A stretch of 64,000 bases of DNA, from assembly GCA_964560875.1 (NCBI GenBank), contig CAZLMW010000005.1, positions 3,882 to 67,881 of the forward strand, given 5' to 3'. Origin of the DNA: an uncultured Enterobacteriaceae bacterium (GTDB lineage Bacteria; Myxococcota_A; UBA9042). How positions within the stretch are numbered: the stretch's first letter is position 1; each line of letters begins with the position of its first letter. Shown piece after piece: positions 5,801 through 61,947 of the stretch. Position numbers and translations under genes: made by a program. The notes under the pieces were generated by a model, which saw nothing but the letters and a program-made list of their open reading frames with translations, was not told the origin of the DNA and searched no databases.

Positions 5801-5963
5801 CGAAATCCAGGCCCCGATGGCGCTCGTCATCCTCTGCGGCCTGGCCACGTCGACCGCGCTGAACATGCTGGTCCTGCCCGCCCTCTACCGACGATTCGGC
5901 GCCGCGTGTGCCGTTGCCATCGAGCCGCCAACCAGCCCGACCGCCCTGCAAGAGCTCGCATGA
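2814..5963 (+). CDS. czcA: Heavy-metal efflux RND permease, CzcA/CusA family (HME-RND)
   Basis: About 1045 aa, 12-TM RND layout, N-terminus VIDGVILWSLRNRAMVIVLA, AIAVGALVDDAIIDMENVVRRL motif. Start is TTG at 2814 or GTG at 2829, immediately after the czcB stop. Confidence 0.85.
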   Translation: MGAPLVIDGVILWSLRNRAMVIVLAAGLCAFGGWRSMNTPVDVFPDLTAPTVVVVAEAHGMAPAEVEALLTFPLETALNGAANVRRVRSKTSVGLAVVSIDFAWGTNIHIARQVVVERLQLLAGKLPAGIEPPVMGPITSIMGDILFVGMTSTKHDPMALRTAADWTVARRLLAVPGVAQVITIGGDVRQFQVQLDPRRLDAYALTADDVAHALEAANENTSAGFLVHGGQEHLIHGIGRVGNSADIGATLVTQRGDLPILVSDVAKVRVGPALKRGEGGVNGKRGVVVAIRKQPRANTLRLTRRIEEELKSLQTALPTGMKIHPGLFRQASFIEVAVRNVGIALRDGAILVVLIVLVFVSSIRATIITALAIPLSLLTALIALSAYGAEINTMTLGGMAIAVGALVDDAIIDMENVVRRLRLRALQPEQSRAPVLRTVFEASREIRASIVFATFIILLVFVPLFFLSGVEGRLLRPLGAAYMLALTASLGVALTVTPVLCSWLLPTAGAVRKHKEPAIVKWLKAAYRPVLATGMRYWDALLVVAAVAFVVAAIALFGAGRSFLPQFNEGSLTLNLVALPGTSLTKSDALGQRVESILLSHAEVISTARLTGRAAGDEHAQDVHASEVEVRLRPTKRDREAFLAALRNDLAAVAGLAVTIGQPIEHRIDHMLSGTRANIAIKIFGPDRHVLRRLGQRVESAVEPIAGVVDLQQQTQADVPFVQLRFKRRAIARHGLTVRFVSREIETAFAGRAVTRLLDGAAVFDVVVRYAGATERALEDVRQTRIGTPSGARLPLHVLADVQRASGPNRIVRENVQRLLVVSCNVADRDLGSVVNDIRETVAANVPMPAGYRVAYGGQFESAQDALHVLGWVGLAVLLGIFVMLLSAIGSARDALLVMVNLPLALIGGVGGVYLGNGVVSVASVIGFITLFGIATRNGIMLVTHFHHLRDEEGETDPDVIVTRGALERLSPILMTALASGLGLLPLALAAGEPGSEIQAPMALVILCGLATSTALNMLVLPALYRRFGAACAVAIEPPTSPTALQELA

Positions 5964-6132
5964 TCGACCCGCGCCGCTTTCAGGCTGTTCATGCTCCCTT
6001 TTGGAGCTGCCACGGAATCCCGGGTTGGACCGGCTGGTTGTAATTCGGTGGTCGACGCCTTGCGGATTGGCTCTCGCGGCGGGTCTCACATCAAAGACCG
6101 AGCGCATTCCGCGCCGCCCTACGGAGCCCACC

Positions 6133-7845
6133 ATGAACACCATCGACCGTCATCGACACCAGATACTGCCCATCGTCCTCGCCTTCGTGCTCGGATTCAA
6201 CGCCGGCTGCGAAGCGGAAACAACCGGTGCCCCCGATCCCATCGACGCGTCCGTTGACGGCAACGTGGATGGTGGCACCAGCGGCGCCGGGACAACGAGC
6301 GGCCTGACCTCCCAGCAAGTCGCGGAAGCAACCGATCCGGACGGCCCCACGCGCTACGACAAGATCTTCGACGGCGACGTGATCCATGACTTGACGGTCA
6401 CTTACAGACCCGGCTCCTGGGACAAGCAGCAAGCCGATATGGTGAAGCTCCTCGGCGAATTTGGTGCCGGCGGCGGCGCAGGGGGCGGTGGTCCGGGCGG
6501 CGGTGACAAGGGCGGCGGTGACAAGGGCGGTCCAGGCGGAGGTGGTGGAGGTCCCGGCGGCGGCAAGGGGCCACCGGCCGAGGCGTTCGCGGCATGCGAT
6601 AAGGCGTCGTCCGGGGATAAATGCACCGTCAGCGTCGGCGGCAACAAGGCGTCGGGCACCTGCGATGATTTCCAGGGCAAGCTCGCCTGCAAGCCCGAAG
6701 GTATGGGCGCCGGCGGCGGAAAGGGCGGCGGCCCGGGCGGCGATCCGCTCAACGGCGGCACCGACCTCGTCAAGGACGATCCGGCGTGGGTTGCGGTCGA
6801 CGTTATCTTCGACGGTGTGCCGCTGAAGTGGGCCGGCCTCCGCTACAAGGGCAACTCGACACTCTCCAGCTCGTGGCGCGGCGGCGTTCACAAGCTCCCG
6901 TTCCGCGTCACCATGGACAAATTCGAGGACGACCACCCCGAAACCAAGAACCAGCGGCTGTGGGGCTTCAAGAAGCTCACGTTCGCGCCCGCCGCCAAGG
7001 ACGCGTCCTTCTTACGCGACGTGTTGGCCGGTGAGGTGCTCCGTGATCGCGGCGTTCCATCGGCCCGCACGGCGTTCTGCCGCGTCTTCGTCGACAAAGG
7101 GGACGGCAAGGGCACGGTCTACGCCGGCCTCTACATCGCCATCGAGGATCCCGCCAACAAGATGATGAAGACGGTCTTCGGCGATAAGAGCGGCAACCTC
7201 TACAAACCCGACGGACCCGGCGCCACGTTCGCGGTGTTCAACCAGTCGTCCTTCGTGAAGAAGACCAACGAAGACGACGCCGACTTCAGCGATGTCAAGG
7301 CCGTCGTCACCGCTCTCAACGCCGATCGCAGCGACGCCGCGGCGTGGCGCAAGACGGTCGATAAGCTCTTCGACGTCGATGGCTTCTTGCGCTGGCTCGC
7401 CGTCAACTCCGCGATGCAGAACTGGGACGCCTACGGGCGCATGACCCACAACTACTACATCTACGCTGACCCCGGTCAGGCCGGTCGCCTCGTCTGGATT
7501 CCGTGGGACCACAACGAAGCGTTCACCAACGGCAAGGGCCTGGCCGATCCCATGCACGCGGACGTCGACGCCACGTGGCCGCTGATTCGCTTCCTGCTGG
7601 ACGATCCCGTTTTCGGAGCGGCCTACAAGGTGCATCTCGGCAAGGCGATCGAGGGCCTCTACGCCGAAGCCGCGTTCGAAGCCCGCGCCAAGAAGCTGCA
7701 CGCGCTCATCGCCAAGGACGTCGCGAACGAGTTGGCGCCGTGGACCCAGCTGTCCGACCCTTCGGCGTTCGCGACGTCTGTCCAGGCCCTCGTTGACCAC
7801 GCCAAGGCGCGTCGTTCGGCGATCAGCGCGTCGTTGGCGAAGTAG
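6133..7845 (+). CDS. CotH kinase-family protein, secreted/lipoprotein with a Gly-rich linker
   Basis: Signal peptide ending ..LGFNAGC. Gly/Lys low-complexity tract. C-terminal region YYIYADPGQAGRLVWIPWDHNEAF and the following helices match the CotH family as I remember it. Confidence 0.65.
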   Translation: MNTIDRHRHQILPIVLAFVLGFNAGCEAETTGAPDPIDASVDGNVDGGTSGAGTTSGLTSQQVAEATDPDGPTRYDKIFDGDVIHDLTVTYRPGSWDKQQADMVKLLGEFGAGGGAGGGGPGGGDKGGGDKGGPGGGGGGPGGGKGPPAEAFAACDKASSGDKCTVSVGGNKASGTCDDFQGKLACKPEGMGAGGGKGGGPGGDPLNGGTDLVKDDPAWVAVDVIFDGVPLKWAGLRYKGNSTLSSSWRGGVHKLPFRVTMDKFEDDHPETKNQRLWGFKKLTFAPAAKDASFLRDVLAGEVLRDRGVPSARTAFCRVFVDKGDGKGTVYAGLYIAIEDPANKMMKTVFGDKSGNLYKPDGPGATFAVFNQSSFVKKTNEDDADFSDVKAVVTALNADRSDAAAWRKTVDKLFDVDGFLRWLAVNSAMQNWDAYGRMTHNYYIYADPGQAGRLVWIPWDHNEAFTNGKGLADPMHADVDATWPLIRFLLDDPVFGAAYKVHLGKAIEGLYAEAAFEARAKKLHALIAKDVANELAPWTQLSDPSAFATSVQALVDHAKARRSAISASLAK

Positions 7846-7863: not shown

Positions 7864-8097
7864 TCAGATCTTCGCGAGCAACATGAAACCGAGCACCAGC
7901 GAGTAGATCGCCAGCGACTCAATGAGCGCCAAGGCCAGCACAAACGGCGTGAAGATGTCCTTGGCGGCCGACGGATTGCGCCCGATCGCTTCGAGCGCCG
8001 CCGACGCAGCACGTCCCTGTCCCAGCCCGCAGCCAGCAGCCGCAAGTCCCATGCCCAGCGCCAGCGCCAGCGCGATAAGTCCCGAGTTGATGCCCAT
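7864..8097 (-). CDS. atpE: F-type ATP synthase subunit c (proteolipid), solitary
   Basis: 77 aa, two TM helices, GLAAAGCGLGQG loop-proximal Gly motif, conserved carboxylate in LALIESLAIYSLV. No atpB or atpF adjacent. Confidence 0.75.
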   Translation of the reverse strand: MGINSGLIALALALGMGLAAAGCGLGQGRAASAALEAIGRNPSAAKDIFTPFVLALALIESLAIYSLVLGFMLLAKI

Positions 8098-9521: not shown

Positions 9522-11699
9522 ATGAACCAGACACGCACACGGCTGCCCGTGATGGCGATTGGAGTCGCCGTGTTGACCGCGTCGATGTTCGCAGCAAACG
9601 CCTTCGCGGCACCGACCACCATCGCGATCGAGGGCGTCATGAGCGCGACCGGAGGCGGCGCGGCTCCCGATGGCTCGTACGTCATGTATTTCCGCCTCTA
9701 CGACGGCAAAGACGCCAAGAAAGCGGCCTGGCAAGAGGGCCCGGTCGCGCTCGTCATCAAGGGCGGCCGATTTGGTCACGCGCTCGGGACGACCAAGGCT
9801 ATCTCCGCCACAGCGCTGGCCGCGCTCGCCAAGCCGTGGCTCGGGATCTCCATCAACCAGGAGCCCGAGATGAAGCGGGTTCCGGTCCACGCCGTGCCAT
9901 ACGCCCGCGTCGCTGCCCGCGCCGGCGCGCTCGATTGCAAGGACTGTGTAGGAGCCAAGCACATCGCCGCCGGCTCGGTCGGTCCGTCCGACGTCGGGTT
10001 CGCCTACGCCGCCGCCGCCGATGGCATCAAGGGCGGCCCGGCCAAGTCTGCCAAGACGCTCGCGTGCACCGGCTGCGTGACCAACAAGCACCTGAAGTTC
10101 ACGGGCGACCTCAACCTCGGCAAATACGGGCTCAAGGCCGGCAAGGTCACCGCGACGTCGGTCGTGGCCAGCACCATCACGGCGGGCAAATACGTTGGCG
10201 ATGGCTCGGCGCTCACCGGCATCCAGATCCCCAGCGGTAAGTGCCCGGCCGGCAAAGTCGTCAGCGGAATCGACGCCACCGGCAAGCTCATCTGCGCCAT
10301 CGCGATGGACCCCAAGGCGCTGCCCGCCGACGGCCTCGACGAGATCAGCAACGGCCTGCTGCACAACCAGTTCGTCGACGAAGCCAAGAGCAAGGCGCCG
10401 GTCAAGATCCCCGACAACAACCCGACCGGTATCTCCAACACCATTGTCTTCCCCGACGTTGGCATCGCGCAGAAGCTTTGGGTCACCGCCAACATCACCA
10501 ACAGCAACATCGCGCAGGTCGAGGTGTCGCTGAAGGCCCCCAACGGCGCGAGCTACCTGTTGTGGAAGAAGGGCACCGGCAACAAGGGCGGCAAGATCGC
10601 GACATCCTGGCCGACGCCAACCAAGACGGTGAGCGGCAACCTCGCCGCGTGGCACGGCAAAAACCCCAAGGGCAAATGGACGCTGACCGTGAAGGACTCG
10701 GGCTTTCTCAACAACCAAACCGACGGGGCCATCAACAGCTGGTCGGTCAAGATCCAGACGCTGAGCAGCAAGAAAGTCGCCGCGTCCGGCCTGCTGCAAG
10801 CCAACGGGGGACTTCAGCTGCTGCGCACCGACAAGCCTCCGCGCGCATGTGACCAGTCTGCGTTCGGCCTGATGTACGCCAGCCCCAAGAACAACGCGAT
10901 CATGATCTGCAACGGCAAGGAGTGGTTCCCGCTGCTGATGGCCGCGTACGGCACGCAGAACAGCCCGGCCGCCAGCTGCAAGGACCTGCTGACCAAGGCG
11001 CCGTTGACCAAATCGGGCGTGTACTGGCTCGATACCGATGGCCTGGGCGGCGAAGTGCCGTGGCAGACCTGGTGCGACATGGATAACGACGGCGGCGGCT
11101 GGACCCTGGCCATCAAGGGGACGCTCAAGGGCAGCTATAACGGCAGCAAAAACCAGCAGCTCAGCGCGTCCAAGGGCTTCATGTACGCGTTCAACCGGGT
11201 CAAGTTCCGAGACGTCCTCGTCAAGCCCGGCAACTACCAGACCAGCCCGCATTGGGTGACCTTTCACAAGGTTGGGGACAGCACCAGCACGCTGGACACG
11301 CGCATCCAAAAGGGCACCCCCGGCAAGAGCTACAGCGTCGACTACAACGTCAGCGCACCGTACAAGCGGACCAACGCCAGCAAGAGCCTCGCGAGCGTGC
11401 CCGAAATGCAGGCCCTGTCGCTGCGGATGAGCCAAACGTCCGGGCCCAACGACGCAATGTTCTTCGTCGTCACCCGCACCTCGCGCGGCTCGTGCAACAG
11501 CTACAACCCGACCGGCACCTACCGCTACGTCACCGGCAGCGGCAAGTGCATCGGCGTCCAGCTCGGTTTCCGGTCCGGCAACTACACGTGGAGCAGCTGG
11601 AAGACCCGCACCGACTGGTCGACCGGCTGCGGCGTGGCCGGCTACTGGAACGGCTCGGAGACCAATTGCACGTCCTCGGGCGCGGTTTTCGTCCGCTGA
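9522..11699 (+). CDS. Secreted protein with a proprotein-convertase P-domain and a C-terminal fibrinogen-related domain (FReD)
   Basis: Signal peptide (AFAAP). P-domain-like GKWTLTVKDSGFLNNQTDGAINSWSVKIQTL. FReD core SCKDLLTKAPLTKSGVYWLDTDG...WQTWCDMDNDGGGWTLAIKG. Paralog of 59560-61947. Confidence 0.7.
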   Translation: MNQTRTRLPVMAIGVAVLTASMFAANAFAAPTTIAIEGVMSATGGGAAPDGSYVMYFRLYDGKDAKKAAWQEGPVALVIKGGRFGHALGTTKAISATALAALAKPWLGISINQEPEMKRVPVHAVPYARVAARAGALDCKDCVGAKHIAAGSVGPSDVGFAYAAAADGIKGGPAKSAKTLACTGCVTNKHLKFTGDLNLGKYGLKAGKVTATSVVASTITAGKYVGDGSALTGIQIPSGKCPAGKVVSGIDATGKLICAIAMDPKALPADGLDEISNGLLHNQFVDEAKSKAPVKIPDNNPTGISNTIVFPDVGIAQKLWVTANITNSNIAQVEVSLKAPNGASYLLWKKGTGNKGGKIATSWPTPTKTVSGNLAAWHGKNPKGKWTLTVKDSGFLNNQTDGAINSWSVKIQTLSSKKVAASGLLQANGGLQLLRTDKPPRACDQSAFGLMYASPKNNAIMICNGKEWFPLLMAAYGTQNSPAASCKDLLTKAPLTKSGVYWLDTDGLGGEVPWQTWCDMDNDGGGWTLAIKGTLKGSYNGSKNQQLSASKGFMYAFNRVKFRDVLVKPGNYQTSPHWVTFHKVGDSTSTLDTRIQKGTPGKSYSVDYNVSAPYKRTNASKSLASVPEMQALSLRMSQTSGPNDAMFFVVTRTSRGSCNSYNPTGTYRYVTGSGKCIGVQLGFRSGNYTWSSWKTRTDWSTGCGVAGYWNGSETNCTSSGAVFVR

Positions 11700-11858: not shown

Positions 11859-12001
11859 GTGCGGAGGCGAATTCGGCCGGCTAGCCCCGGCTAGCCCGAG
11901 CGATGCGTGCGCTGAGGCCGTGACCGCGAAACAGTCGTCCTGGAGCCTACCTACGCGCTACAATGACGGTCATGGTCATACCTGCTGCTGGCTCGCCCCG
12001 G

Positions 12002-13555
12002 ATGGTTACCGGGAGTTGTGCACGCGTATGCGCGACGATTGTCTTCGTCGTTGCCGGCCTTGGCTCGTGCGGGCAGCGCGCTGAAGACACCAATGGCCTG
12101 GCCAGCGGAGACTTGGACGCGACCGACGGCAACACGGCGGTCCAGCCCACGGATTCGTTCGACGCCGACGTCGCAAACGGCGGCGGTTCAGTCGACGTTG
12201 GCGCGAAGGCGTGCGTCGAGCTTCATCCCAAAGGGACCGTGCCGTTCGTCGCGAAGATCAACACGACGCAGAAACGGACGTTCGAGCTAAGCAACTGCGG
12301 CGATCTCGCCGTCGACATCACGCGAATCCGATGGGATCCGCAGCTTCCACAGCCGCTCTCGTTCACCCTCGAGCTCTCTGGCTTGAAGGCGACCTGGCCC
12401 TCGATCGACGAAACCGACGGACCGACCCTCACCAAACCGGCGACCCTTTTGCCCGGCGCCAAGGTGTCGTTCGCGGTCGTCTACAAGCCGACGCAGGTCG
12501 CCCCGACCTACCCCGATGGCAAACCGATCCCCGAAGAAGCGCACGTCATTGTCCGCCACGCCGCATCCGCCCAGCCTCTGCGACTGCACCTCACCGGCCA
12601 AGGCGTCAAACACGTTTGCCCGGTCGCGTTTGCGCAGGCCAAAGAGGGCACGGCCGTCATCCCCAACACCATGCTTCACCTCAAGGGCAGCGCGTCGTAC
12701 GCCGCCATCGGGTCGCTGAAGAAGTGGAGCTGGACGGTCAAGCAGCCGAGCGGATCCAACCAGGTGTTCGTGCCCGGCCCGAGCTTCCCCGACCCGACGT
12801 TCACCACCAACGCCGCGGGCGATTACGAATTCTGCCTCGAGGTGTTCGACGATGAAGGCCGCAAGAGCTGCCATCCGTCGTGCGTCACCGTGTCCGTGGT
12901 TGTGGAGGCCAGCATCCACGTGGAGCTGCTGTGGAAGACGCCCGCCGACCCCGACGAAACGGATACGGGACCGGCCGCCGGGGCCAACATGGACCTGCAC
13001 TTCGCCCATCCCAAGGCGTACGGTCCCGACCGCGATTGTGACAACGTCCCCGATCCGTGGTTCTCCGTGCCGTTCGACGTCTTCTGGTTCAATCCGAAGC
13101 CAAAATGGCACGCCAATCCCAAGGCGCCTACTGCGGCGTGGCTGGATGTCGACGACACCGACGGAGCAGGTCCTGAGAACATCGTGCTCGACGACCCGCA
13201 AGGCCAGGTCAGCAAACCGATGGCCTACGATATTGGTGTGCACTATCGCAACGACCATGGCTTCCAGACGTCCTACGCGACCGTCAACGTCTACATCCTG
13301 GGCGTGCTCGCGCTGCAAATCAGCAAGGTCAAGATGAATGTGCTGGATATGTGGCATGTCGGCCGGATCAACTGGCCCAACACCATGGCGCAAGGCGTGC
13401 TCGATCCCTTTCACATCTGCTACCAGTCGGGCGACCCGTGCAAGGGCGGCAAGAAGTGGCGGCTCAAGGGCGACTACTGCATCGCCCGGTGCTACCTGCC
13501 CAAGGCTTTCGCGAAGTACGCGTCGACGCTCGGCTGGGGCAGCTGCAAGAAATGA
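12002..13555 (+). CDS. Hypothetical lipoprotein with a PKD-like domain
   Basis: Lipobox AGLGSCG (ATG at 12002; an upstream in-frame ATG at 11963 is possible). PKD-like segment WSWTVKQPSGSNQVFVPGPSFPDPTFTTNAAGDYEFCLEVFDDEG. The stop overlaps the next start. Confidence 0.6.
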   Translation: MVTGSCARVCATIVFVVAGLGSCGQRAEDTNGLASGDLDATDGNTAVQPTDSFDADVANGGGSVDVGAKACVELHPKGTVPFVAKINTTQKRTFELSNCGDLAVDITRIRWDPQLPQPLSFTLELSGLKATWPSIDETDGPTLTKPATLLPGAKVSFAVVYKPTQVAPTYPDGKPIPEEAHVIVRHAASAQPLRLHLTGQGVKHVCPVAFAQAKEGTAVIPNTMLHLKGSASYAAIGSLKKWSWTVKQPSGSNQVFVPGPSFPDPTFTTNAAGDYEFCLEVFDDEGRKSCHPSCVTVSVVVEASIHVELLWKTPADPDETDTGPAAGANMDLHFAHPKAYGPDRDCDNVPDPWFSVPFDVFWFNPKPKWHANPKAPTAAWLDVDDTDGAGPENIVLDDPQGQVSKPMAYDIGVHYRNDHGFQTSYATVNVYILGVLALQISKVKMNVLDMWHVGRINWPNTMAQGVLDPFHICYQSGDPCKGGKKWRLKGDYCIARCYLPKAFAKYASTLGWGSCKK

Positions 13556-15909
13556 GCACGATGTTTCGATGGTTGCTGGTCGGTGTCGCGGTGGCGACGC
13601 TGGCGGCCTGTTCGCAAGCCGAAGAGGGTGACGAAGCCGACGGCATTGCGGTTGACCTCGCGGCCCAGGACATGGTCTCGGCGGGACAGGACGTGCACGA
13701 CGCCGGACTTGAAGACGGTGCAGCCAGCGAGGTCAGCGGGTTTGACGACGTCGGACCGTTTGTGGATGCGCCGAATGACACCGGGTCGACCGCGGCCGAT
13801 GTGGCGCCGACAGATACAAATCCGGCCGAGCTGATCAAGTGCAACAAGCCCAGCTACTGCACCAAGTTCAAGCCAACACCAATCTGCGATCTGGTGACTG
13901 GCTATTGCGTGCAGTGCCTTATCGACATGCATTGCATCTATCGCTCGCCGAGCAAGCCAACCTGCACGAACAAGGTGTGCACCAAGTGGGGCAAAAACGA
14001 GCCCTGCAAGCCCGGCAGCACGTTGTGCGGCGGCAAGCACGTGCTGATGGTCTGTGGCAAGGACAGTCAGTGGCAGCCCCAGCTCTGTCCTGAGATCGCG
14101 CCCGTCTGCATTGCCGGCCAATGCCGCGATTGCGTTGCCAACCAGCCCTACTGCGCCAAACCGGAGGCCGGCCAGCCGTCTAAAGCCCTGATGAAGTGCG
14201 ACGCGACCGGCAAGGGCAGCCTGCTCAAGGTCTGCGGGGCCAAGGAGTTGTGCGTCAACGGGCAGTGCGTGATGTGCCCGCCCGGCAATTTCACGTGCGA
14301 TGGCGACAAGGCGATGGTGTGCAACGCCGCCGGCAGCCAGCTTTCGTTGAAGGAGGATTGCGCCAAGACCGGCAACGTCTGCGTCGCGGGAACATGCGTT
14401 GACCCGTGCAAGTCCCCGACCGGCAGCATCTGCGTGCGCGCGGCTGTGGATCTCGACATGGCGGCGCTGCCCATCCCCGGTCAGACCAGCAAGACGGCGG
14501 CGGGGCTGCCGGTTGAAGCGCTGTTGAGCAACCCATCGAGCAGCGACGGGACGATTCTCGCGACCGCCGCGAGTGGACAGACCCACAAAGACACAATCAA
14601 GGCGGGCAAGGGCTTGACGATGCAGCTGCCGGTCGCTGCTTGGAACTTGCCGGCGTGGAGCCAGGACGGTTCGACCATCAACAACTACAGCGCGCGCGTC
14701 GACGTCGGTAAACACACGACCATGCACCTGCACAAGCGATCGGTCGGGGTTGCGCCACGGACGGCGGCGATGGCGCTTTCGTTCCCCATGGCGCTGCTTG
14801 GCAAGAAGTACTGGATCGTCGCGGGCGATCACCCGTGGCCGAAGATGCGCTCGTTCGTCACCATCGTAGCGGTCGAAAGCGGCTTGACGTCCCTGCAGTT
14901 GGTGCCGTCTACGAAGTTGCTCAGCGGCGGCGGGATGGGTCAGTCGATCCCGGCGCCATCCAGCTACAAGCTAACGAAAGGGCAGGTCCTGACAGTTGAG
15001 TCCGACGTCTTGGGGGGCGGGCTGACAGGATCGTTTGTCATGGCGAGCAACCCCATCGCGGTGTTCGCTGGCGGCGAGGCGGCGACGGTTCCGCGAACCA
15101 ACCGGTGCGTGAAGCAGGCCGGCAAGGTCAAGGGCGCGTGCGCCACAAAGGGGTGGGCGTGTGCCACCGACGCCGACTGCCCACGGACGTGTTGCGAAGA
15201 TGCGGTGCACGAGCAGCTGCTGCCGGTGTCGCGGTGGGGGACCATCTACCCGCTGGCCGCATTTGCGCCGCGCGGCAAGGCCAAGGACACCTGGACAGTC
15301 ATCGCCGCGCACAGCAACACGATCGTCCAGACCTTCCCGCAGGTCGCGACAATCCCGCCGCTCAACCAAGGCCAGGCCTATTCATTCGACGCCTCGGGCA
15401 TGTTTGTGCTCAAGGCCAACAAGCCCGTCATGGTCGCCCACGCTATGAGTGGCAAAGCTGCGCCCGACGCCAATCCGGACATGTGCGCGCCCGGTGCCGC
15501 CAACGTTTGCATGTGGCATCACAGCAACAAAGTGTCGACGAAGCCGTGCAAGCACCATGTCGACTGTCCGAATATCCCCCAGGCGGACGATGCAAAAGTC
15601 GGTGGGCCGGCGCTGTCGATCGCTATGCCACCCACGCTGCATGCCAAGAGCCACGCTTTCACGGTGCCGGAGGGGTACGACAAGGCGTGGGTGACCATCA
15701 TCTGCGAGAAGGGCGATGTCGCCGTGGACGGCAAGAAGATCGCGGCGGCGGCTTGGCAGACGATCCCGTCGCAGCCGTGGAAAGTCGCGAGGGTTGCTAT
15801 GAAACCCGGAACGCACGTCGTCAAAGCAGACGATCCGTGCGGTGCGGAGATCCACGGGTGGAACGCCGATGCGGGGTGGGCCACGACCGCGGCCGTCGGT
15901 GGTTGGTGA
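13552..15909 (+). CDS. Large cysteine-rich lipoprotein, hypothetical
   Basis: ATG at 13552 overlaps the upstream stop (ATGA). Signal peptide with lipobox LAACSQ. About 30 Cys in the N-terminal EGF/follistatin-like modules. Large C-terminal beta-rich domain. Confidence 0.6.
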   Translation: MSTMFRWLLVGVAVATLAACSQAEEGDEADGIAVDLAAQDMVSAGQDVHDAGLEDGAASEVSGFDDVGPFVDAPNDTGSTAADVAPTDTNPAELIKCNKPSYCTKFKPTPICDLVTGYCVQCLIDMHCIYRSPSKPTCTNKVCTKWGKNEPCKPGSTLCGGKHVLMVCGKDSQWQPQLCPEIAPVCIAGQCRDCVANQPYCAKPEAGQPSKALMKCDATGKGSLLKVCGAKELCVNGQCVMCPPGNFTCDGDKAMVCNAAGSQLSLKEDCAKTGNVCVAGTCVDPCKSPTGSICVRAAVDLDMAALPIPGQTSKTAAGLPVEALLSNPSSSDGTILATAASGQTHKDTIKAGKGLTMQLPVAAWNLPAWSQDGSTINNYSARVDVGKHTTMHLHKRSVGVAPRTAAMALSFPMALLGKKYWIVAGDHPWPKMRSFVTIVAVESGLTSLQLVPSTKLLSGGGMGQSIPAPSSYKLTKGQVLTVESDVLGGGLTGSFVMASNPIAVFAGGEAATVPRTNRCVKQAGKVKGACATKGWACATDADCPRTCCEDAVHEQLLPVSRWGTIYPLAAFAPRGKAKDTWTVIAAHSNTIVQTFPQVATIPPLNQGQAYSFDASGMFVLKANKPVMVAHAMSGKAAPDANPDMCAPGAANVCMWHHSNKVSTKPCKHHVDCPNIPQADDAKVGGPALSIAMPPTLHAKSHAFTVPEGYDKAWVTIICEKGDVAVDGKKIAAAAWQTIPSQPWKVARVAMKPGTHVVKADDPCGAEIHGWNADAGWATTAAVGGW

Positions 15910-49281: not shown

Positions 49282-52200
49282 ATGACCGCTCGTTTCACGC
49301 CCGCGGCCGCGCGCCGTTACCCCATCGCGTGCCTTTGCATCGCTTCCCTCGCGCTGACCGCCTGCGGCAGCGATGAACCGGTCGACGGCCCCCTGGCTTC
49401 GACAAACGTCGACTCGGGCCCGGCCGATACCGGACAGACCGACACCGGCGTCCAGGACTCGGGGACCACCGACACCGGGGTCAACGACACCACGCCCACG
49501 GACACGGGGACCACCGACACCGGGGTCAAGGACACCAACCCGAACGTCGACGTCCAGCCGGTGGACACCAAGCCGCCGGTCGACGCCAAGCCCGACACCA
49601 AGCCGCCGACCGACGCCGCGCCCGAGTGCACCAACGCCACCGACTGCGTCCCGTCCACCGATCCGTGCAAGGTCGCCGCGTGCACGTCCGGCCAGTGCGT
49701 GCTCGCCGATGGGCCCGACGGCAAGGAATGCACCGACGACGACGCCTGCACCGGCCCGGACCTGTGCAAGACCGGCGTGTGTCTGCCCGGCAAAGCGACC
49801 CAGTGCGACGACGCGAACGCTTGCACGCTCGACAACTGCGACAAGAACAAGGGCTGCAGCCACACCAACGTCTCGCTGCCCTGCGATGACGGCAGCAAGT
49901 GCACTTTGGCCGACCAGTGCAAGGACGGCGCGTGTCTCGCCGGGGCCACGGCCGAATGCGACGACGCAAACCCATGCACCGACAACACCTGCGAGCCCGC
50001 GATCGGCTGCGTGACGACCGCTACCACCAAGCCATGCGACGACGCAAACGCGTGCACGCTCGGCGACAAGTGCAGCGCGAAGGTCTGCCTGCCCGGCACG
50101 GTCACCAACTGCAACGACGACAACCCATGCACGACGGACGCGTGCGACAGCAAGACCGGCTGCACCCAGGCGTTCAACAAGGTGCCTTGCTCGGACAACG
50201 ACGCCTGCACCATCAAGGACGCCTGCAAGGACGGCAGCTGCAAGCCGGGCACCAAGCTCGACTGCGACGACTCCAACCCCTGCACCGCGGACGCCTGCGA
50301 CGCGCAATCGGGCTGCACGACCAAACCGAACACCGCGACCTGCGATGACAACAACCTGTGCACCGAAGACGACAGCTGCAAAGGCGGAAAATGCCTGCCC
50401 GGCAAGTCCAAGTCGTGCAGCGACGGCAACCCGTGCACCACCGATAGCTGCGACCCGGCGACCGGCTGCGCATTCAAGCTCAACAGCGGGCAGTGCGACG
50501 ACGGCAACGCGTGCACCGACTTCGACATCTGCAAGAGCGGCAAGTGCCGCGGCGTCGCCAAGGACACCAAGACCGACTGCAACGACGCCAACCCATGCAC
50601 GACCGACGCGTGCGATCCCGGCTCGGCCCAGGTGAAGGGCAAGGGCTGCGTACACACCAACAACACCGCCAAGTGCGACGATGGCAACGCCTGCAGCGCC
50701 GGAGACGCCTGCAAAGACGGCAAGTGCGCGGCCGGCAAAAACGTCTGCGCCTGCACCGAAGACAAGCACTGCGCCCCGTCCAACCCCAAGAACCCGTGCC
50801 TCGGCACGCTGTTCTGCGACAAGTCCGCGGCGCCGTTCAAGTGCAAGCTCAACCCGGCTTCAGTGGTCAAGTGCAGCGGCGCCGGTGACACGTTGTGCGC
50901 CAAGAACCAGTGCGATCCCAAGGACCTCAAGTGCAAGGTGACGCCGATCGCCGAGGGCCAGTCCTGCAACGCCGACAACTCGGTCTGCACCGTTGGCGAC
51001 GCCTGCAAGAACGGCAAATGCGCGCCCGGCAAAGCGCTCGCCTGCAACGACGCCAACCCGTGCACCAACGACGCCTGCGACCCCAAAGCCGGCTGCGTGA
51101 ACACCGCGAATTCGGCGCCCTGCAACGCGGACGGCAACCCCTGCACCGTCGGCGATGTGTGCGTGGCCAAGGCGTGCACGGCGGGCAAGAAGAAGGACTG
51201 CGACGACGGCGACAAGTGCAGCGACGACTCCTGCGACAAGAAGTCCGGCAAGTGCGTCAACGACAAGATCGCCGGCTGCGGCGGTCACTGCCAGGAAGAC
51301 AAGCACTGCGACGACGGCACGACCTGCACGACCGAGTCCTGCGCCAAGGCCAAGGGGGCCGCGTGGGGCAAGTGCGCGTACAAGAACCAGCCCGGCAAGT
51401 GCACCGACTTCAACGCCTGCACCGCGGCCGACCACTGCGTCGCGGGCAAATGCGTCGGCACGGCCAAGTCCTGCAGCGACGGCAACCCCTGCACCAACGA
51501 CGGCTGCGACCCGACCAGCGGCTGCACGTTCCCGCACAACACCGCGCCTTGCGACGACTTCGACAAGTGCACCCAGGGCGACCAGTGCAAGGCAGGCAAG
51601 TGCGCGGCAGGCACCCCCAAGAAGTGCGACGACGCCGACAAATGCACCAAGAACGCCTGCAACCCTGCGGACGGGGCCTGCAGCTTCAAGGGCATCGCGG
51701 GCTGCGGCGGCTACTGCGATACCGCGGCGGACTGCGACGACAAGAACCCGTGCACGACCGCGCAATGCAACAAGGGCAAATGCGTCTCATCGGTCAAGGC
51801 GGGCGGCTGCGAGGACGGCAACAAGTGCACGCTGAGCGACAAGTGTTCGGCCGGCAAGTGTGTCTCGGGCAGCAAGAAGAGCTGCGATGACAAGAACGCG
51901 TGCACCACCGATTCGTGCGACACCAAGACCGGTCAGTGCGCCAACAAGCCGCTCAAGGCCGGCGACAGCTGCAACGACAACAACAAGTGCAGCACCAAGG
52001 ACGTGTGCAAGCTCGTCAGCGGCAAGCTGCAGTGCGGGGGTACGACCAAGAACTGCGACGACGGCAACAAGTGCACCGACGACGCGTGCGACGCGAAAAC
52101 CGGCAACTGCCAGCCCAAGGTCAACACCCTGCCGTGCGAAGACGGCAACAAGTGCACCGCGGGCGACCGCTGCAAGGACGGCAAGTGCGTCACCGGCGCC

Positions 52201-55200
52201 AAGGTCTACGTCGACACGTTCGCGGGTTCGGGGCCCATCCATGGCAACAAGGGCGGATTCGTCGACGGGCCTGGCAACAAGGCCAAGTTCAGCTACCCGC
52301 TTGGCGTCGCAGTCAACAGCAAGGGCGTCGTCTACGTCGCCGACGCGTCCAACCACCGGATTCGCCGCATCGCCGCCGACGGCACCGTGAGCACCGCGGC
52401 TGGTTCGGGTAAAGCTGGCCTGCTCGACGCGAAGGGCACCGCCGCCTGGTTCAACGCGCCTTATGGCGTCGCTATCGGGCCGGGCGATGAGGTGTTCGTC
52501 GCCGACCAGGCCAACTACAGCATCCGCAAGATCGCGACCGACGGCACCGTTTCAACCGTCGCGGGATCGGGCCAGGGGGGGCACGTCAACGGCGACGCGG
52601 CCAAGGCGCGGTTCAACCGACCGTTCGGCGTGGCGGTCAGCAAGGCCGGCACCATCTTCGTCGCGGACACCTACAACCACCGCATTCGTCGCATCGCTTT
52701 CGGGCAGGTAACGACACTCGCGGGCAGCGGCGGGGCAGGGTTCACCAACGGCACGCCGACCAAGGCGCGCTTCTACTACCCGATCGGGGTCGCTATCGAC
52801 GCTGGTGGCAACGTGCTCGTCGCCGACCAGAGCAACCATCGCATCCGCCGCGTCGACGCCAAGGGCAACGTCACCACGTTCGCCGGCACGGGCGGCTACG
52901 GCTCGCTCAACGGCAGCGCGACCAAGGCCACGTTCCGCAACCCGTGGGGCATCGCGGTCGACAACGCGGGCGTGGTTTGGATCGGCGATCGCTACAGCCA
53001 TCGCATCCGGCGCATCGCGGGCGGTGTGGTCACCACTTTTGCTGCCAGCGGCGCCGCGGGCTTCGTCGATGGGGCCGCGAACACCGCGCGCCTGTACTAC
53101 CCGTCCGGGGTTGCCGTCGACGCCGGCGGAACCCTCTACATCGCCGACCAATACACCCACCGTGTGCGACGTGTGCGCGATTCGACCGCGCCATGCCTCA
53201 TCGGCGGCAGCTGCTACGCCAACGGCGCGGCGAACCCGGCCAACGGCTGCGAACGCTGCGTCGCCAAGACGTCATCGACCAAGTGGACGGCGGGCGGCGA
53301 CGGCAACGCGTGCTCGGACGGCGATGTCTGCACCGCGGCCGACAAGTGCAGCGGCGGCTCCTGCAAGGGCAGCGCCAAGGTCTGCAACGACAGCGACAAG
53401 TGCACCCTCGACAGCTGCGACAAGAGCACCGGTCAGTGCGTGTTCGCGCCGATTAACAAGTGCGGCGGCAACTGCAAGGGCGCCAGCGACTGTGCCGACA
53501 ACAACCCGTGCACCATCGACAAGTGCACCAACGGCAAGTGCGCGAACAGCAACGCGGACGGACTTGTCTGCAACGACGGCAACAGCTGCACCCTCGGCGA
53601 CGCCTGCAAGGGCGGCAAGTGCCAGCCCGGCGCGTCCAACAGCGTCTCGACCCATGCCGGCAGCGGCGTCGCGGCGTTGACCGACGGCAAGGGCATAAAA
53701 GCCAGCTTCAACTACCCGCGCGGCGTCGATGTTGGCGTGAAGGGCGAGCTGTGGGTCGCTGAAGGCCACTCCCACCGCATCCGCAAGGTCGCTGCGGACG
53801 GCACGGTCACGACGGTGGCCGGGTCCGGTGTCGCTGGATTCGCGGACGGCAAGCTCGCCGGCGCGATGTTCCAGTGGCCGCACGACGTCTCGTTCGCCAA
53901 GGCCGGCGTGATCCACGTCGCCGACGGTAGCAATCACCGCATTCGCACGGTCGACACGGCCAAGGGCGTGGTGACGACACTGGCCGGAATTGGCGCCGGT
54001 TTCACGGATGGTCCGGCCGCCAAGGCGCGGTTCAACAACCCGTACAGCCTCGCGACCGCACCCAACGGCACGGTTTTCGTCGCGGACTACAGCAACCACC
54101 GCATCCGCGCGATCTCGCCAGCCGGGGGTGTCAGCACGCTTGCCGGCGGCGCCAAGGGCTTCGTCAACGGCACCGGCAGCAAAGCGCGCTTCAACGGCCC
54201 GATCGGCATCGCGCTCGACCAGCAGGGGCGCGTCGTCGTGTCCGATTACAGCAACCACTCGATCCGCCGCGTCACCATGCAAGGCGTCGTGACCACGATC
54301 GGCGGCACTGGGGTCGCCGGGTATCGCGACGGTTCGGCCGGTGTCTCGCGCTTCCGCTACCCCTGGGGCATCACCACGGATTCAGCCGGGCGCGTTTTCG
54401 TGGCCGACCGACACAACCATCGCATTCGGGCGATCCATCCCAACGGCACGGTGACCCGCATCGCTGGCACAACCGCCGGGTTCCTCGATGGCGACGGCCT
54501 GACCAAGGCGCGACTGCACTACCCGATGGGGCTCGCCGCGGACGCCAACGGCACGCTGTGGGTGGGCGACTACAGCACGCGCAGGATCCGCAAGGTCGTG
54601 CCCTCGGCGAACGCCTGCTCGATCGGTGGCGCCTGCTACGCAAACGGCATTGGTTCCCCGACCAACGGCTGCCAGGCATGCGCCGGACAAACCAACAGCA
54701 AGGCGTGGACCGCGCGGGCCGACGGCGCCGTTTGCTCCGATGGTGACGTGTGCAGCGGCAAGGACGCCTGCGCCAGCGGCAAGTGCGCGAGCAAGAAGAC
54801 CAACTGCGACGACGGCAACAAGTGCACCAAGGACTTCTGCGACCACCTCGGCGTGTGCCGCAACGAGCCGATCGTCGGCTGCGACGGCTTCTGCTACCAG
54901 CACGCGGATTGCGACGACAAGAACGTGTGTACCGACGACGTCTGCAACGCCAACAAGTGCGCCAACCCGACCAACGTCAAACCGTGCGAGGACGGGGTCT
55001 CCTGCACGCTCGGCGACACGTGCAGCGGCGGTAAGTGCAAGCCAGGAACCGCCGTCTGGACGTCGACCATCGCGGGCAATGGAAAGGCCGGCTTCAAGGA
55101 CGGGAAGGTGACCGACGCGCAGTTCTACTATCCGCTCGGGATCGCGGTCGACAGCGGCAAGGGCCATGTCTACGTCGCCGACAACAGCAACCACCGCCTG

Positions 55201-59281: not shown

Positions 59282-59559
59282 GTTGGAACATGTGGCCAAC
59301 CACAATGGCGGCCCCAGAGCCGCCGCTGTTCCCACGGCCCGGCACAATGGTCCGCGACGCTTTGTCGAAGTGAAAGGTCCCGGCGACCAGCTACAGCCCA
59401 ATCAGAAGCGCTGGCTGCAGGCGCTCGAGGAGGTTGGCGTTGACGCGAGCGTAGTCGATGTCCGGTGGGCGGCCGGCAGCCCATGAGCCGCGAAGAGAGC
59501 CAAGCCTCGTTCACCCCTCGATATTCGGCCTGCTGGACCGAATGTGGCAAGCTGCCGCC

Positions 59560-61947
59560 ATGAAGAACCGCACCATTGTTGGCCTTGCCGCCGCCGCACT
59601 TTCTCTCACCCTCGCCGCACCCGCCGCGGCCGCTGTTCCAGCCACGGTCGCCATGCACGGAACGCTGCATTCGGCCGGTGGTGGACCGGTCGCCGACGGC
59701 ATCTACGGCGTCACCATCGCGCTCTATGCCGGCGAAAACGATAAGGTGGCGGCGTGGAGCAACCTCGTGCTGGTCAAGGTCACTCACGGCCACTTCGCGC
59801 ACCCGCTGGGCAGCAAGAAGGCGCTCGATGCCAAGCTGCTCGGGACGTTCGGTTGGCTCGGCGTGACCGTCGGCCAGGACCCGGAGTTGCCGCGTGTTCG
59901 CCTTCACAGCGCGCTCTTCGCCCGCCACGCCGCGGTCGCCAACGCCGTCGCATGTTCGGGCTGCATCACCGCCACGCACCTCGCCAAGGGCCTGTTGAGC
60001 ACCGGAGTCCCCGACGGGTCGATCACCGCCAAGAAGGTCACGTTCGCCTGGGCCGCCGCAGACAAGGCCGGTGGCAAGGCCCTCGCAGCCAAGATCGCCG
60101 ACAGTGCCAAGAACGCCGACAGTGCCAAGAACGCCGACAATGCCAAGAACGCCGACAATGCCAAGAACGCCGACAATGCCAAGAACGCCGACAGTGCCAA
60201 GAACGCGGCGTCTGCCCTCGTTGCGACCACCGCCAAGCTCGCCAGCGACCTCAAGTGCACCGGCTGTGTCGGCGTGTCTGAGCTCGCCTTCGATGGCGAC
60301 ATCGATCTCGGCAAGAACCGGCTCAAAGCGGCCAAAGTGAGCGCGACCGAGGTCGTCGGAAGCACCGTAACGGCGGGCTCTTTTGTAGGCGACGGCTCCA
60401 AGCTGACCGGAATCGCGCTGCCCAAGGGGTCATGCGCCGCTGGCGAGGCGGTTGTCGGGGTCAGCACGAACGGCAAGCTGCTTTGCAAGAAGGTCGCCTC
60501 TGCCACGCCCGGCGGCTCGCTCGAGAAGGTCAGCGGCGGTCTGCTCACGACAGGGTTTTCGCAGGTTGTCGCCAACAACAAGGCGATCCCGATCCCGGAC
60601 AACAACCCCGGCGGCGCCTACAGCGATGTCGTCGTGCCGGACCTCGGCATCGTCAAGAACCTGACCGTCGCCATCGACGTGACCAACTCGGCGTTTTCGG
60701 GGCTCACCGTGACCCTGATCGCCCCCGACAAGAGCAAGTACGTGCTGTTCTCCAAGAACGGCGCGGTCATCACCAACCTCAAGGCGACCTATCCCGCGCC
60801 GAACAAGCCGGTCAGCGGCGACCTCAACGCGTGGATCGGCAAGAACGCCAAGGGCACATGGCGGCTGCACGTCGTCGATATGTCGTTCAAGGACAACGGC
60901 AAGGACGGCAACATCGTCTCGTTTTCGATGCACATCGCGTTCCAGGCAACCGGCAAGGTCGGCACCACCGGCGTCTTCATGCTGCACAAGTCCGCGACCC
61001 CACCAGCGGCCTGCTCGCTCGCGTCCGAGGGCGGCATCTACTACGACCCCAAGCTCAAGCGCCTGCGCTTCTGTGACGGCAACGCGTGGCAATCGGTCGC
61101 GGGGAGCTGCGGCAACGGCACCAAGGAGCCGGGCGAGATGTGCGACGACGGCAACAACACCAACGGCGACGGATGCACGTCTGTCTGCACGACGATCTGC
61201 GGCGACGGCAAAGTCGGCGGGGCCGAACAATGCGACGACGGCAACAAGGTCGACAACGACGGCTGCAGCAACACCTGCAAGGGCGCACTCGGCCAATCGC
61301 AGAGCTCGGCCGCGAAGAGCTGCAAATACATCAAGCAGCTATCGCCCAACGTCAAGAGCGGCCTGTTCTGGCTCAAGGTCTCGGGCCTCGGCACGTTCCA
61401 GGCCTACTGCGATATGTCGACGGCCGGCGGTGGCTGGGTCCTGACGCACGTCGTCCGCACCTACAGCAGCAACGTCTCGTGGTGGTTCACGCGCACCGGT
61501 GACGGCACAGGTGGCGTGACGAACCTGCCCAAAGCGGTCAAGCAACCGAGCAGCTACCACACCGGTCCGACCCTGAAGACGCGCGCCAGCCTGTGGACTG
61601 GCCTCGGCGGTACGGAGTATCGGGGCACGCGCTACAGCACCGGCGGGTCCCTGCTGATGGACGTGACCAAGAACGACATCAAGTCCTGCCAGGTCGGCCT
61701 GTTCTGCTACGCGGCAGGATGCGGCGGCAGCCCGTGCTTCAGTCAGAAGCGGTCGGGCAGCGTGACCGTGATCGGGGGAACGCTGTACGGCAAGGGCACG
61801 CAGCCCTACTACGACGTCGGCAGCTACAAGTGCAATTGCTCCGAGGCGCTGCAGGTCGGCGGGTCGGGCGCCGGACAGAGCAACGGACACGGCCTCGCAG
61901 GCGACTGGGACACCGGCAACGGCTACACGGCCTTCTGGGTCCGCTAG
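59560..61947 (+). CDS. Secreted protein with a P-domain, Myxococcus cysteine-rich repeats and a C-terminal fibrinogen-related domain (paralog of 9522-11699)
   Basis: Signal peptide. (AKNAD)x7 repeat. P-domain GTWRLHVVDMSFKDNGKDGNIVSFSMHI. CGNGTKEPGEMCDDGNNTNGDGC, CGDGKVGGAEQCDDGNKVDNDGC. FReD SGLFWLKV..YCDMSTAGGGWVL. Confidence 0.75.
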   Translation: MKNRTIVGLAAAALSLTLAAPAAAAVPATVAMHGTLHSAGGGPVADGIYGVTIALYAGENDKVAAWSNLVLVKVTHGHFAHPLGSKKALDAKLLGTFGWLGVTVGQDPELPRVRLHSALFARHAAVANAVACSGCITATHLAKGLLSTGVPDGSITAKKVTFAWAAADKAGGKALAAKIADSAKNADSAKNADNAKNADNAKNADNAKNADSAKNAASALVATTAKLASDLKCTGCVGVSELAFDGDIDLGKNRLKAAKVSATEVVGSTVTAGSFVGDGSKLTGIALPKGSCAAGEAVVGVSTNGKLLCKKVASATPGGSLEKVSGGLLTTGFSQVVANNKAIPIPDNNPGGAYSDVVVPDLGIVKNLTVAIDVTNSAFSGLTVTLIAPDKSKYVLFSKNGAVITNLKATYPAPNKPVSGDLNAWIGKNAKGTWRLHVVDMSFKDNGKDGNIVSFSMHIAFQATGKVGTTGVFMLHKSATPPAACSLASEGGIYYDPKLKRLRFCDGNAWQSVAGSCGNGTKEPGEMCDDGNNTNGDGCTSVCTTICGDGKVGGAEQCDDGNKVDNDGCSNTCKGALGQSQSSAAKSCKYIKQLSPNVKSGLFWLKVSGLGTFQAYCDMSTAGGGWVLTHVVRTYSSNVSWWFTRTGDGTGGVTNLPKAVKQPSSYHTGPTLKTRASLWTGLGGTEYRGTRYSTGGSLLMDVTKNDIKSCQVGLFCYAAGCGGSPCFSQKRSGSVTVIGGTLYGKGTQPYYDVGSYKCNCSEALQVGGSGAGQSNGHGLAGDWDTGNGYTAFWVR

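Follow-up and report, generated by a model that had tools for sequence, protein, structure and literature searches.

A lineage-specific family of secreted scaffold proteins with exchangeable C-terminal heads in uncultured Myxococcota

Introduction

The stretch of DNA analysed here (the window) comprises 64,000 nucleotides of contig CAZLMW010000005.1, assigned to the Myxococcota, and carries two genes, A and B, whose products were described in an initial annotation as secreted proteins with a proprotein-convertase-type P-domain and a C-terminal fibrinogen-related domain (FReD). Stalked heads of the FReD, globular C1q (gC1q) and C-type lectin types are central to innate immune recognition and extracellular matrix (ECM) signalling in animals; the usual view treats them as inventions of the Metazoa that occur only sporadically in bacteria. 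The locus raises the question of what such heads do on secreted bacterial proteins, and what the presence of two copies means for the DNA lying between them.

Genes A and B belong to one lineage-specific and highly expanded family, within which they diverged long ago; its members are modular, disulfide-rich proteins secreted by the Sec route. They combine a conserved scaffold with an exchangeable head that probably serves recognition outside the cell, its ligands being most plausibly glycans.

Results

A and B belong to an expanded family

Both open reading frames (ORFs) are real and lie where the initial annotation placed them; they are located on the same (forward) strand with 47.9 kb between them, also in agreement with the initial description (Table 1). 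The length of B is counted from the MKNRT start, and a longer ORF opens at 59458. The signal peptides are of the Sec type in both proteins, as had been claimed, and the family consensus around the cleavage site in homolog alignments is AxA followed by AVPxT. A lipobox was looked for in A and B, and neither has one. Both proteins have an even number of cysteines (14 in A, 24 in B), which fits a disulfide-bonded protein outside the cell.

The proposed paralogy was confirmed by BLASTP: across 511 alignment columns, which take in the N-terminal two thirds, A and B are 35% identical (E 1e-86). The C-terminal domains are alignable over 52 residues only, around SCK...CDM..GGGW, at 46% identity. No third copy was found within the window by tblastn, and promoter and terminator scans around A and B remained at chance level.

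The exact A protein is present on three or more metagenome contigs, and the window sequence is matched in ENA ERZ27251152 k141_591830 (103 kb) and in JGI samples. In a set of 5.8 billion proteins, at least 226 homologs of A were identified, the majority being unnamed proteins of metagenome-assembled genomes (MAGs); relatives of A are on record at 71%, 56% and 55% identity. The closest database relative of B is 49% identical, with no nearer ortholog, and B itself is absent from the protein collection under the three starts that were tried. In an HMMER search of 1.84 billion representatives at 50% identity, 353 relatives of the scaffold reached E<=1e-30.

One genome per GTDB species was scanned with the alignment of the N-terminal module (N-module) as a query, revealing 445 encoding stretches. 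The best 79 loci, to which all locus-level counts given below (MAGs, heads, neighbours, gene pairs) refer, come from 11 MAGs only: 32 from CAYTLW01, 9 from CAZPHC01, 8 from JAUIAC01 and fewer from each of the others. Those of the 11 MAGs that are informatively titled are all Myxococcales or Deltaproteobacteria. The family is massively expanded and specific to a lineage of uncultured marine-type Myxococcota. Several MAGs with dozens of family copies (CAYTLW01, CAZPHC01, CAYHHL01) are titled “uncultured Enterobacteriaceae bacterium”, which is almost certainly a placeholder or a mislabel.

The FReD-like core domain is already known, since it is covered by the NCBIfam model NF040941, and some homologs carry the NCBI product name [quoted passage not shown]. 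The initial remark that bacterial FReD proteins are uncommon does not apply to this lineage, for which NCBI maintains a product name in addition to the curated model. In the searchable full-text literature, neither the scaffold nor the head swapping nor the family expansion was found to be described.

The C-terminal heads of A and B are members of the FReD superfamily

The CDM..GGGW core reported initially is present in both proteins as SCK...CDM..GGGW, and NF040941 is matched with 62.9 bits (A) and 54.7 bits (B) against a threshold of 30. The assignment to the FReD proper stood at the superfamily level, through NF040941, the family profile and Foldseek, and did not stand at the level of the Pfam Fibrinogen_C threshold. 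Compared with solved FReDs, the profile of the GGGW-type family matched intelectin-1 (E 2.4e-14), tachylectin-5A (E 8e-12, chain 47-230), FIBCD1 (E 4e-11) and the fibrinogen gamma chain (E 3.4e-10, chain 7-228, essentially the whole FReD). Alignment positions C66, C98 and G104-W107 are invariant in 74 sequences; they represent the first FReD disulfide and the GGGW motif, the cysteines corresponding to C486/C518 in A and C588/C617 in B.

The head was modelled with AlphaFold2 (AF2) on A 421-725 with 73 homologs. The predicted local distance difference test (pLDDT) values reach 85-97 at A 421-600 and in the last strand (..VFVR), the ..VR end of which we take to resemble the ..RP end of animal FReDs. 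Among the matches listed by Foldseek against the PDB, all were FReDs: the best was XEEL/intelectin-1 (E 3e-6, probability 1.0), and FGL1, FIBCD1, ficolins, angiopoietins and tachylectin-5A followed, also with probability 1.0. The superpositions are good over about 110-150 columns only, with a template modelling (TM) score of at most 0.41. Given the family-profile matches, the Foldseek results and the invariant cysteine pair with GGGW, the membership of the A and B heads in the FReD/intelectin superfamily is well supported.

Behind the core, the head is hypervariable. Among 30 GGGW-type members, the mean pairwise identity amounts to 53% for the N-module (43% for A versus B), 46% for the 50-residue FReD core (42% for A versus B) and 15% for the distal head of about 190 residues (23% for A versus B). 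By their last 150 residues, about 32 FReD heads were grouped into about 20 clusters or singletons. In animal FReDs, the approximately 190 distal residues correspond to the part forming the ligand pocket and the Ca2+ site; A and B are completely different in this part.

The head subtype of A is conserved in itself and reappears on other scaffolds at 42-58% identity. It was identified on Stig1-type Cys repeats (P0211), on MopE-type repeats (P0214 and P0216), and in a “mini” form consisting of the Ig-like domain, linker and head, without stalk or P-domain (P0215).

The scaffold carries heads of several classes

The scaffold is composed, in this particular order, of: (i) a signal peptide; (ii) an Ig-like beta-sandwich; (iii) a CxxC stalk with the GDGSxLTGI motif and a disulfide hairpin; (iv) a P-domain; and (v) a linker with two cysteines. 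Heads are exchanged on it at a fixed junction. When members are chosen by their N-module, the FReD head is found on only about 40% of them. Heads of the gC1q/TNF-like type occur at 12 loci, with matches to adiponectin (E 1.4e-8), collagen X (E 1.7e-3) and C1q-like proteins including C1QL3; BclA_C was matched in 4 of 11 members and C1q in 3 of 11. Triple heads resembling C-type lectin-like domains (CTLD) and Link domains occur at 9 loci, with matches to DC-SIGNR (E 2.4e-3), poxvirus A33 and aggrecan, and with Xlink in 5 of 9 members. Furthermore, a CTHRC1_C head (E 1e-40), a TLDc head (E 6e-23) and an F5/8 type C discoidin head (E 4e-14) have been identified. MAG CAYTLW01 alone has at least eight head classes on the scaffold.

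Of the heads that could be assigned, the overwhelming majority are globular domains of the extracellular binding or ECM type. What is new here is a conserved scaffold (Ig-like domain, CxxC stalk, P-domain, Cys linker) that carries FReD, gC1q-like, CTLD/Link-like, CTHRC1-C, discoidin or TLDc heads within the same genomes.

A structural role should be weighed at this point, in which the proteins would make up a fibre, sheath or matrix outside the cell and the head would mainly be an oligomerisation or nucleation domain instead of a lectin. COLFI in procollagen and NC1/gC1q in collagens VIII and X are domains of this kind. COLFI matches come near the threshold or exceed it (A, 25.4 bits; locus L007, 48.8 bits; the cut-off is 26.2, and both A and B, the latter with 16.6 bits, stay below it), the gC1q matches include the NC1 domains of collagens X and VIII, CTHRC1_C heads exist, and the protein is rich in disulfides with a stalk of variable length. 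However, the COLFI matches are limited to the core of about 50 residues common to FReDs (profile positions ~22-70 of 233), the extreme diversity of the heads and their hypervariable distal halves fit diversified recognition better than uniform assembly, and discoidin and CTLD-like heads are binding modules. A matrix function is accordingly regarded as unlikely, yet it deserves more weight than the alternatives that follow.

A conserved N-terminus with a swappable C-terminus and many paralogs per genome also recalls polymorphic effectors or toxins, in which an N-terminal trafficking module delivers variable toxic or enzymatic C-termini to competitors or prey. The occurrence of the heads on other scaffolds and the possibly enzymatic TLDc heads fit such a family. 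Against this, all identified heads are of the binding or ECM type (FReD, gC1q, CTLD/Link, CTHRC1, discoidin), with no nuclease, deaminase, peptidase or pore-former among them; neither A nor B is followed by a small, conserved immunity-like gene; and markers of the type VI secretion system, Rhs, PAAR and CdiA type were not found in the window. An effector family is therefore considered improbable.

The N-terminal module, the stalk and the linker

Conservation within the family is highest in the region of A and B that is blank in Pfam. For A 28-300, the AF2 model based on 104 sequences consists of a confident Ig-like sandwich, then a helix, then a poorly ordered segment with a disulfide hairpin; strands are predicted at 218-233 of the model, in the GDGSALTGI region of A. 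Searched against PDB folds, the N-module gave generic Ig/MG-like sandwiches only (best E 0.026), and no relative at E<=1e-3 was found in a viral structure library (best E 4e-3).

In the family alignment the second CxxC is almost invariant. The spacer between the two CxxC motifs is 38 or 41 aa long in 164 of 206 members, and its length increases stepwise by “LAKGAVGAxA”-type decapeptides. The conserved CxxC pair and the stepwise spacer lengths are no more than suggestive of an oligomeric stalk. The spacer of B, with 101 aa, is the second longest of the 206, owing to an in-frame tandem repeat of 18 bp x 6.6, which was also recovered in the repeat scan as repeat family D12. This 18-bp repeat is a candidate for slippage length polymorphism.

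The “Gly-rich beta repeats” of the initial annotation proved to be a single-copy conserved motif, GDGSxLTGI, occurring once per protein without repetition. GDGSxLTGI and the “LAKGAVGAxA” repeats are of a kind known from phage fibre-like proteins, and a relationship to phage tail fibres was also considered; PHROGs gave an E of 0.059 only for GDGSxLTGI, the viral structure library held no relative of the N-module at E<=1e-3, and this lead is unsupported.

The P-domain was correctly recognised from the outset, P_proprotein exceeding the Pfam cut-off in both A and B (Table 1). On this basis the family could be assigned a protease-related role, the P-domain marking a processing protease, as in the JGI name “subtilisin-like proprotein convertase family protein” given to some homologs. 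In neither A nor B, however, do Pfam and NCBIfam detect a peptidase S8 or other catalytic domain, the neighbours of the P-domain are the stalk and the linker, and the N-terminal region models as an Ig-like sandwich with a stalk. Such a role is thus extremely improbable, and the JGI name is misleading because no peptidase domain is present. P0219 (798 aa) matches the P-domain region of the query five times in separate stretches and thus seems to have P-domains in tandem; the domain may consequently be a reusable spacer module in this lineage.

The linker that follows has the pattern C..G..Y...C.G..W and is found before every FReD head, before two of the three TLDc heads and before most of the gC1q heads. 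The myxobacterial disulfide repeats that had been noticed in B are confirmed by TIGR02232 (66.4 bits against 20.8) and DUF4215 (PF13948; 48.3 bits against 27), and none were found in A with Pfam and NCBIfam. They represent an optional insert, present in P0040, P0042 and P0044 according to Pfam precomputed domains and absent from most other homologs.

The interval between A and B

According to the initial annotation, the two genes bracket a lipoprotein-rich stretch and could mediate recombination; the two co-oriented paralogs would thereby flank a variable island subject to deletion or rearrangement by homologous recombination. The co-orientation, the distance and several lipobox proteins between A and B agree with this idea. 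At the DNA level, however, A and B are 65% identical over 596 bp (blastn), their longest shared word is 12 nt, the best direct repeat between them is 43 nt at 74%, and no repeat family of the repeat scan joins both ends. The GC content is flat throughout the window (0.63-0.69), a tRNA scan found no tRNAs, and no integrase, transposase or other mobility gene was present among the roughly 35 ORFs scanned. Three samples share the first 21.7 kb, which contain A, with the same gene order and at no less than 99.8% identity. The B side is matched at 100% in two other samples, the contigs of which end inside B at 60301 and 60517, just 3' of the 18-bp repeat; the whole interval is spanned by one contig only.

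The spacing also recurs elsewhere in this multi-copy family: five contigs among the 79 loci hold a pair of family genes separated by 42-90 kb, and the pairs occur in either orientation. A distance of 48 kb between A and B is what a dense multi-copy family produces, and it is without structural meaning. As a recombination substrate the pair is refuted, and the whole notion of a variable island between A and B is very improbable.

Nor is the interval clearly lipoprotein-rich in the manner described: a lipobox was counted in about 9 of its roughly 30 ORFs. The interval is made up of ordinary chromosomal genes: efflux, an AMP-binding ligase, an MMPL transporter, a DUF1552/DUF1592 pair, an extracytoplasmic function (ECF) sigma factor, LOG, a cation-chloride cotransporter (CCC), a sigma-54 activator, a Ser/Thr kinase, a hydrolase, a giant NHL lipoprotein and a response regulator. 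At the 79 family loci, the neighbours of A (CotH, GST, the PKD lipoprotein, the IgGFc-binding lipoprotein) and those of B (response regulator, ankyrin, GGDEF-EAL) gave isolated single-gene matches only.

Neighbouring genes

Downstream of A lies a PKD lipoprotein gene, and downstream of B a convergent ankyrin gene belonging to a GGDEF operon. With CotH (5908-7845) upstream and the PKD and IgGFc_binding lipoproteins downstream, the neighbourhood of A is rich in “eukaryote-like” secreted proteins. Between CotH and GST, an isolated c-subunit-like gene was identified; the window yielded no further ATP synthase gene. Two small secreted Cys-rich proteins (Table 1) flank the DUF1552/DUF1592 (PSD) pair and show weak thionin and hefutoxin matches.

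In the giant predicted lipoprotein, about 35 cysteine-rich “CDDxNxCTxDxC” repeats (Dicty_CTDC, 181 bits) precede 19 NHL repeats, or a teneurin-type NHL domain (520 bits). Its ortholog (51% over 2688 aa) adjoins locus L014, the closest relative of A in CAYTLW01, in divergent orientation. A giant Cys-rich/NHL protein was also considered as a general partner of the family and rejected: the signal came from common Cys-rich repeats, and true adjacency is limited to about 10 loci, with non-FReD heads. At these loci, about 10 of 79 and all with gC1q-like, CTLD-like or “LANK” heads (L020, L039, L051, L054, L056, L067, L076, L077, L079 and L082), the same-strand gene immediately upstream codes for 970-2000 aa with 9.5-16% Cys. 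The density of the Cys-repeat motif is 0.3-0.6 per kb within 3 kb upstream, versus 0.07 per kb at 8-10 kb. The Cys-rich upstream gene and the gene with the non-FReD head may form a two-gene cassette of those subfamilies.

Table 1. Features of genes A and B and of neighbouring genes, in positions of the window
Feature	Position	Strand	Basis or remark
Gene A, 725-aa secreted scaffold and FReD-type head protein	9522..11699	+	ORF
A, signal peptide, residues 1-29, ...ANAFA/AP (cleavage before APTT)	9522..9608	+	read from sequence
A, N-terminal Ig-like beta-sandwich, residues 28-127	9603..9902	+	AF2 pLDDT 81-97
A, stalk spacer bounded by CxxC pair (CKDC, residues 139-142; CTGC, residues 182-185)	9936..10076	+	
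A, GDGSALTGI motif (residues 226-234) and Cys241-Cys258 beta-hairpin	10197..10295	+	almost invariant columns
A, P-domain PF01483, residues 319-410	10476..10751	+	38.7 bits vs cut-off 21
A, Cys-linker mini-domain, C443...C463, CDQSAFGLMYASPKNNAIMICNGKEWF	10848..10928	+	both Cys invariant, pLDDT >90
A, FReD-type head, residues 485-725; core, residues 485-529; distal half “A-type”	10974..11696	+	core by NF040941
Gene B, 795-aa paralog of A	59560..61947	+	ORF, 35% identity to A
B, signal peptide, residues 1-25, ...PAAAA/VP (cleavage before VPAT)	59560..59634	+	read from sequence
B, stalk spacer, CSGC (residues 132-135) to CTGC (residues 233-236)	59953..60267	+	
B, near-perfect 18-bp x 6.6 in-frame tandem repeat in spacer, AKNAD(S/N)	60088..60206	+	TRF 97% matches, score 210
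B, P-domain PF01483, residues 366-458	60655..60933	+	33.3 bits vs cut-off 21
B, Cys-linker mini-domain, residues 485-510	61012..61089	+	
B, two myxo cysteine-rich acidic repeats, residues 517-569	61108..61266	+	TIGR02232, DUF4215
B, FReD-type head, residues 587-795; core, residues 587-628	61318..61944	+	core by NF040941
Isolated 77-aa ATP-synt_C (c-subunit-like) gene between CotH and GST	about 7864-8097 (L001 8343-8576)	-	
Predicted lipoprotein with K319L-like PKD domain, directly downstream of A	11963-13555	+	
Predicted lipoprotein with IgGFc_binding domain, downstream of A	about 13555-15909	+	146 bits
Small secreted repetitive Cys-rich protein	21056-21883	-	
Small secreted repetitive Cys-rich protein	25534-26451	-	
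Giant 2785-aa predicted lipoprotein	49282-57639	+	LALTAC lipobox

Discussion

Function of the family

The lectin- or adhesin-like secreted role suggested in the initial annotation is the best reading of the family, binding itself being what we infer. The scaffold would display an exchangeable recognition head outside the cell, and the repertoire of paralogs would supply many binding specificities. The targets would most plausibly be glycans or other surface polymers of prey, of neighbouring cells or of the matrix. The scaffold may also oligomerise in the manner of ficolins, C1q, collectins and BclA, with the two CxxC motifs as candidates for inter-chain disulfides. In animals, such heads cap oligomeric stalks C-terminally, as in ficolins, C1q, collectins, collagens VIII and X and CTHRC1, and BclA does so in Bacillus. 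To our knowledge, every characterised FReD, gC1q or CTLD stalk protein is oligomeric.

Several points weigh against this interpretation. For the stalk, analogy with characterised FReD, gC1q and CTLD stalk proteins is the sole basis of the proposed oligomerisation, and the AF2 model of the A stalk has a low confidence (pLDDT 53-68). For the head, the Pfam Fibrinogen_C (PF00147) scores of 17.7 bits (A) and 15.3 bits (B) are below the gathering threshold of 22, and the matches span profile positions 5-59 (A) and 14-46 (B) of 221 only. The pLDDT falls below 50 over most of A 613-716, and the profile of the A-type head aligns to solved FReDs over the core of about 50 residues only. Because of this low confidence in the distal head and the lack of a match to solved FReDs there with the A-type profile, no Ca2+ or ligand (acetyl, diol) site was recognisable in the distal head. 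The distal head of B (163 aa) has no detectable relative among about 290 family proteins. As to the other heads, the CTLD/Link-like matches are all sub-threshold though coherent, TLDc is not a classical lectin domain, and three head classes (“FCLKLxN”, “LANK” and “CGLCC”) have no assigned family, the first of them giving no identity in Pfam or PDB profile searches.

A more far-reaching version of the recognition-head reading would see in these proteins a bacterial counterpart of the soluble pattern-recognition molecules of animals (ficolins, C1q, collectins and intelectins), an oligomeric scaffold with a combinatorial set of FReD, gC1q, CTLD-like, CTHRC1 and discoidin heads by which predatory or social marine Myxococcota would recognise the surface glycans of prey or neighbours. 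This idea is speculative and is put forward tentatively, with slightly more confidence than the matrix function.

Significance

This bacterial lineage appears to present a picture different from that of metazoan inventions with sporadic bacterial occurrence: a single secreted scaffold with interchangeable heads, dozens of paralogs per genome and hypervariable distal halves. If this picture holds, the family would provide a tractable system for studying how specificity diversifies while the scaffold stays fixed. It would also be a new source of reagents resembling lectins, and it would supply material on the origin of the head domains and the direction of their transfer. Under the more far-reaching version given above, the FReD/gC1q/CTLD head-on-stalk design, and possibly a deep reservoir of head domains, would be placed in bacteria. 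With regard to annotation, the JGI convertase name should not be relied upon, and the conserved N-terminal module has no family model apart from that of the P-domain.

Comparison with known systems

The closest entry among existing models is NF040941 (“GGGWT_bact”), matched by both A and B; it describes the 46-residue core only and is silent on the scaffold, the distal half and the other heads. Compared with the animal FReD lectins (intelectins/X-type lectins, ficolins, tachylectin-5A and FIBCD1), the A and B heads share profile similarity together with the first disulfide and GGGW, the modelled head of A has a partial fold similarity as well, and the C-terminal domains of fibrinogen beta/gamma, tenascin and angiopoietin are also among their closest relatives. 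As in the animal lectins, the head is C-terminal and stands behind a stalk; as in the intelectins, only its first 50 residues or so are clearly FReD-like in sequence. In contrast to the animal FReD lectins, the host is bacterial and the stalk of A and B is formed from an Ig-like domain, a CxxC segment and a P-domain, with no collagen or coiled coil.

The P-domain itself is shared with the proprotein convertases (furin/kexin). A and B lack the subtilisin-like catalytic domain of these enzymes, and their P-domain is a non-enzymatic, stand-alone module in the middle of the protein. With the myxobacterial cysteine-rich acidic repeat proteins, B shares two repeats placed between linker and head, whereas A has none.

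The design principle of an N-terminal stalk with a C-terminal recognition head is common to this family and to ficolins, C1q, collectins and BclA, the last with a collagen-like stalk and a C1q/TNF-like head. However, no collagen domain was detected in A or B with Pfam and NCBIfam, and the bacterial family puts FReD, gC1q-like and (weakly matched) CTLD-like heads on one scaffold. The exchange of heads takes place here inside one paralogous family, whereas in the defence collagens the heads are spread over separate gene families.

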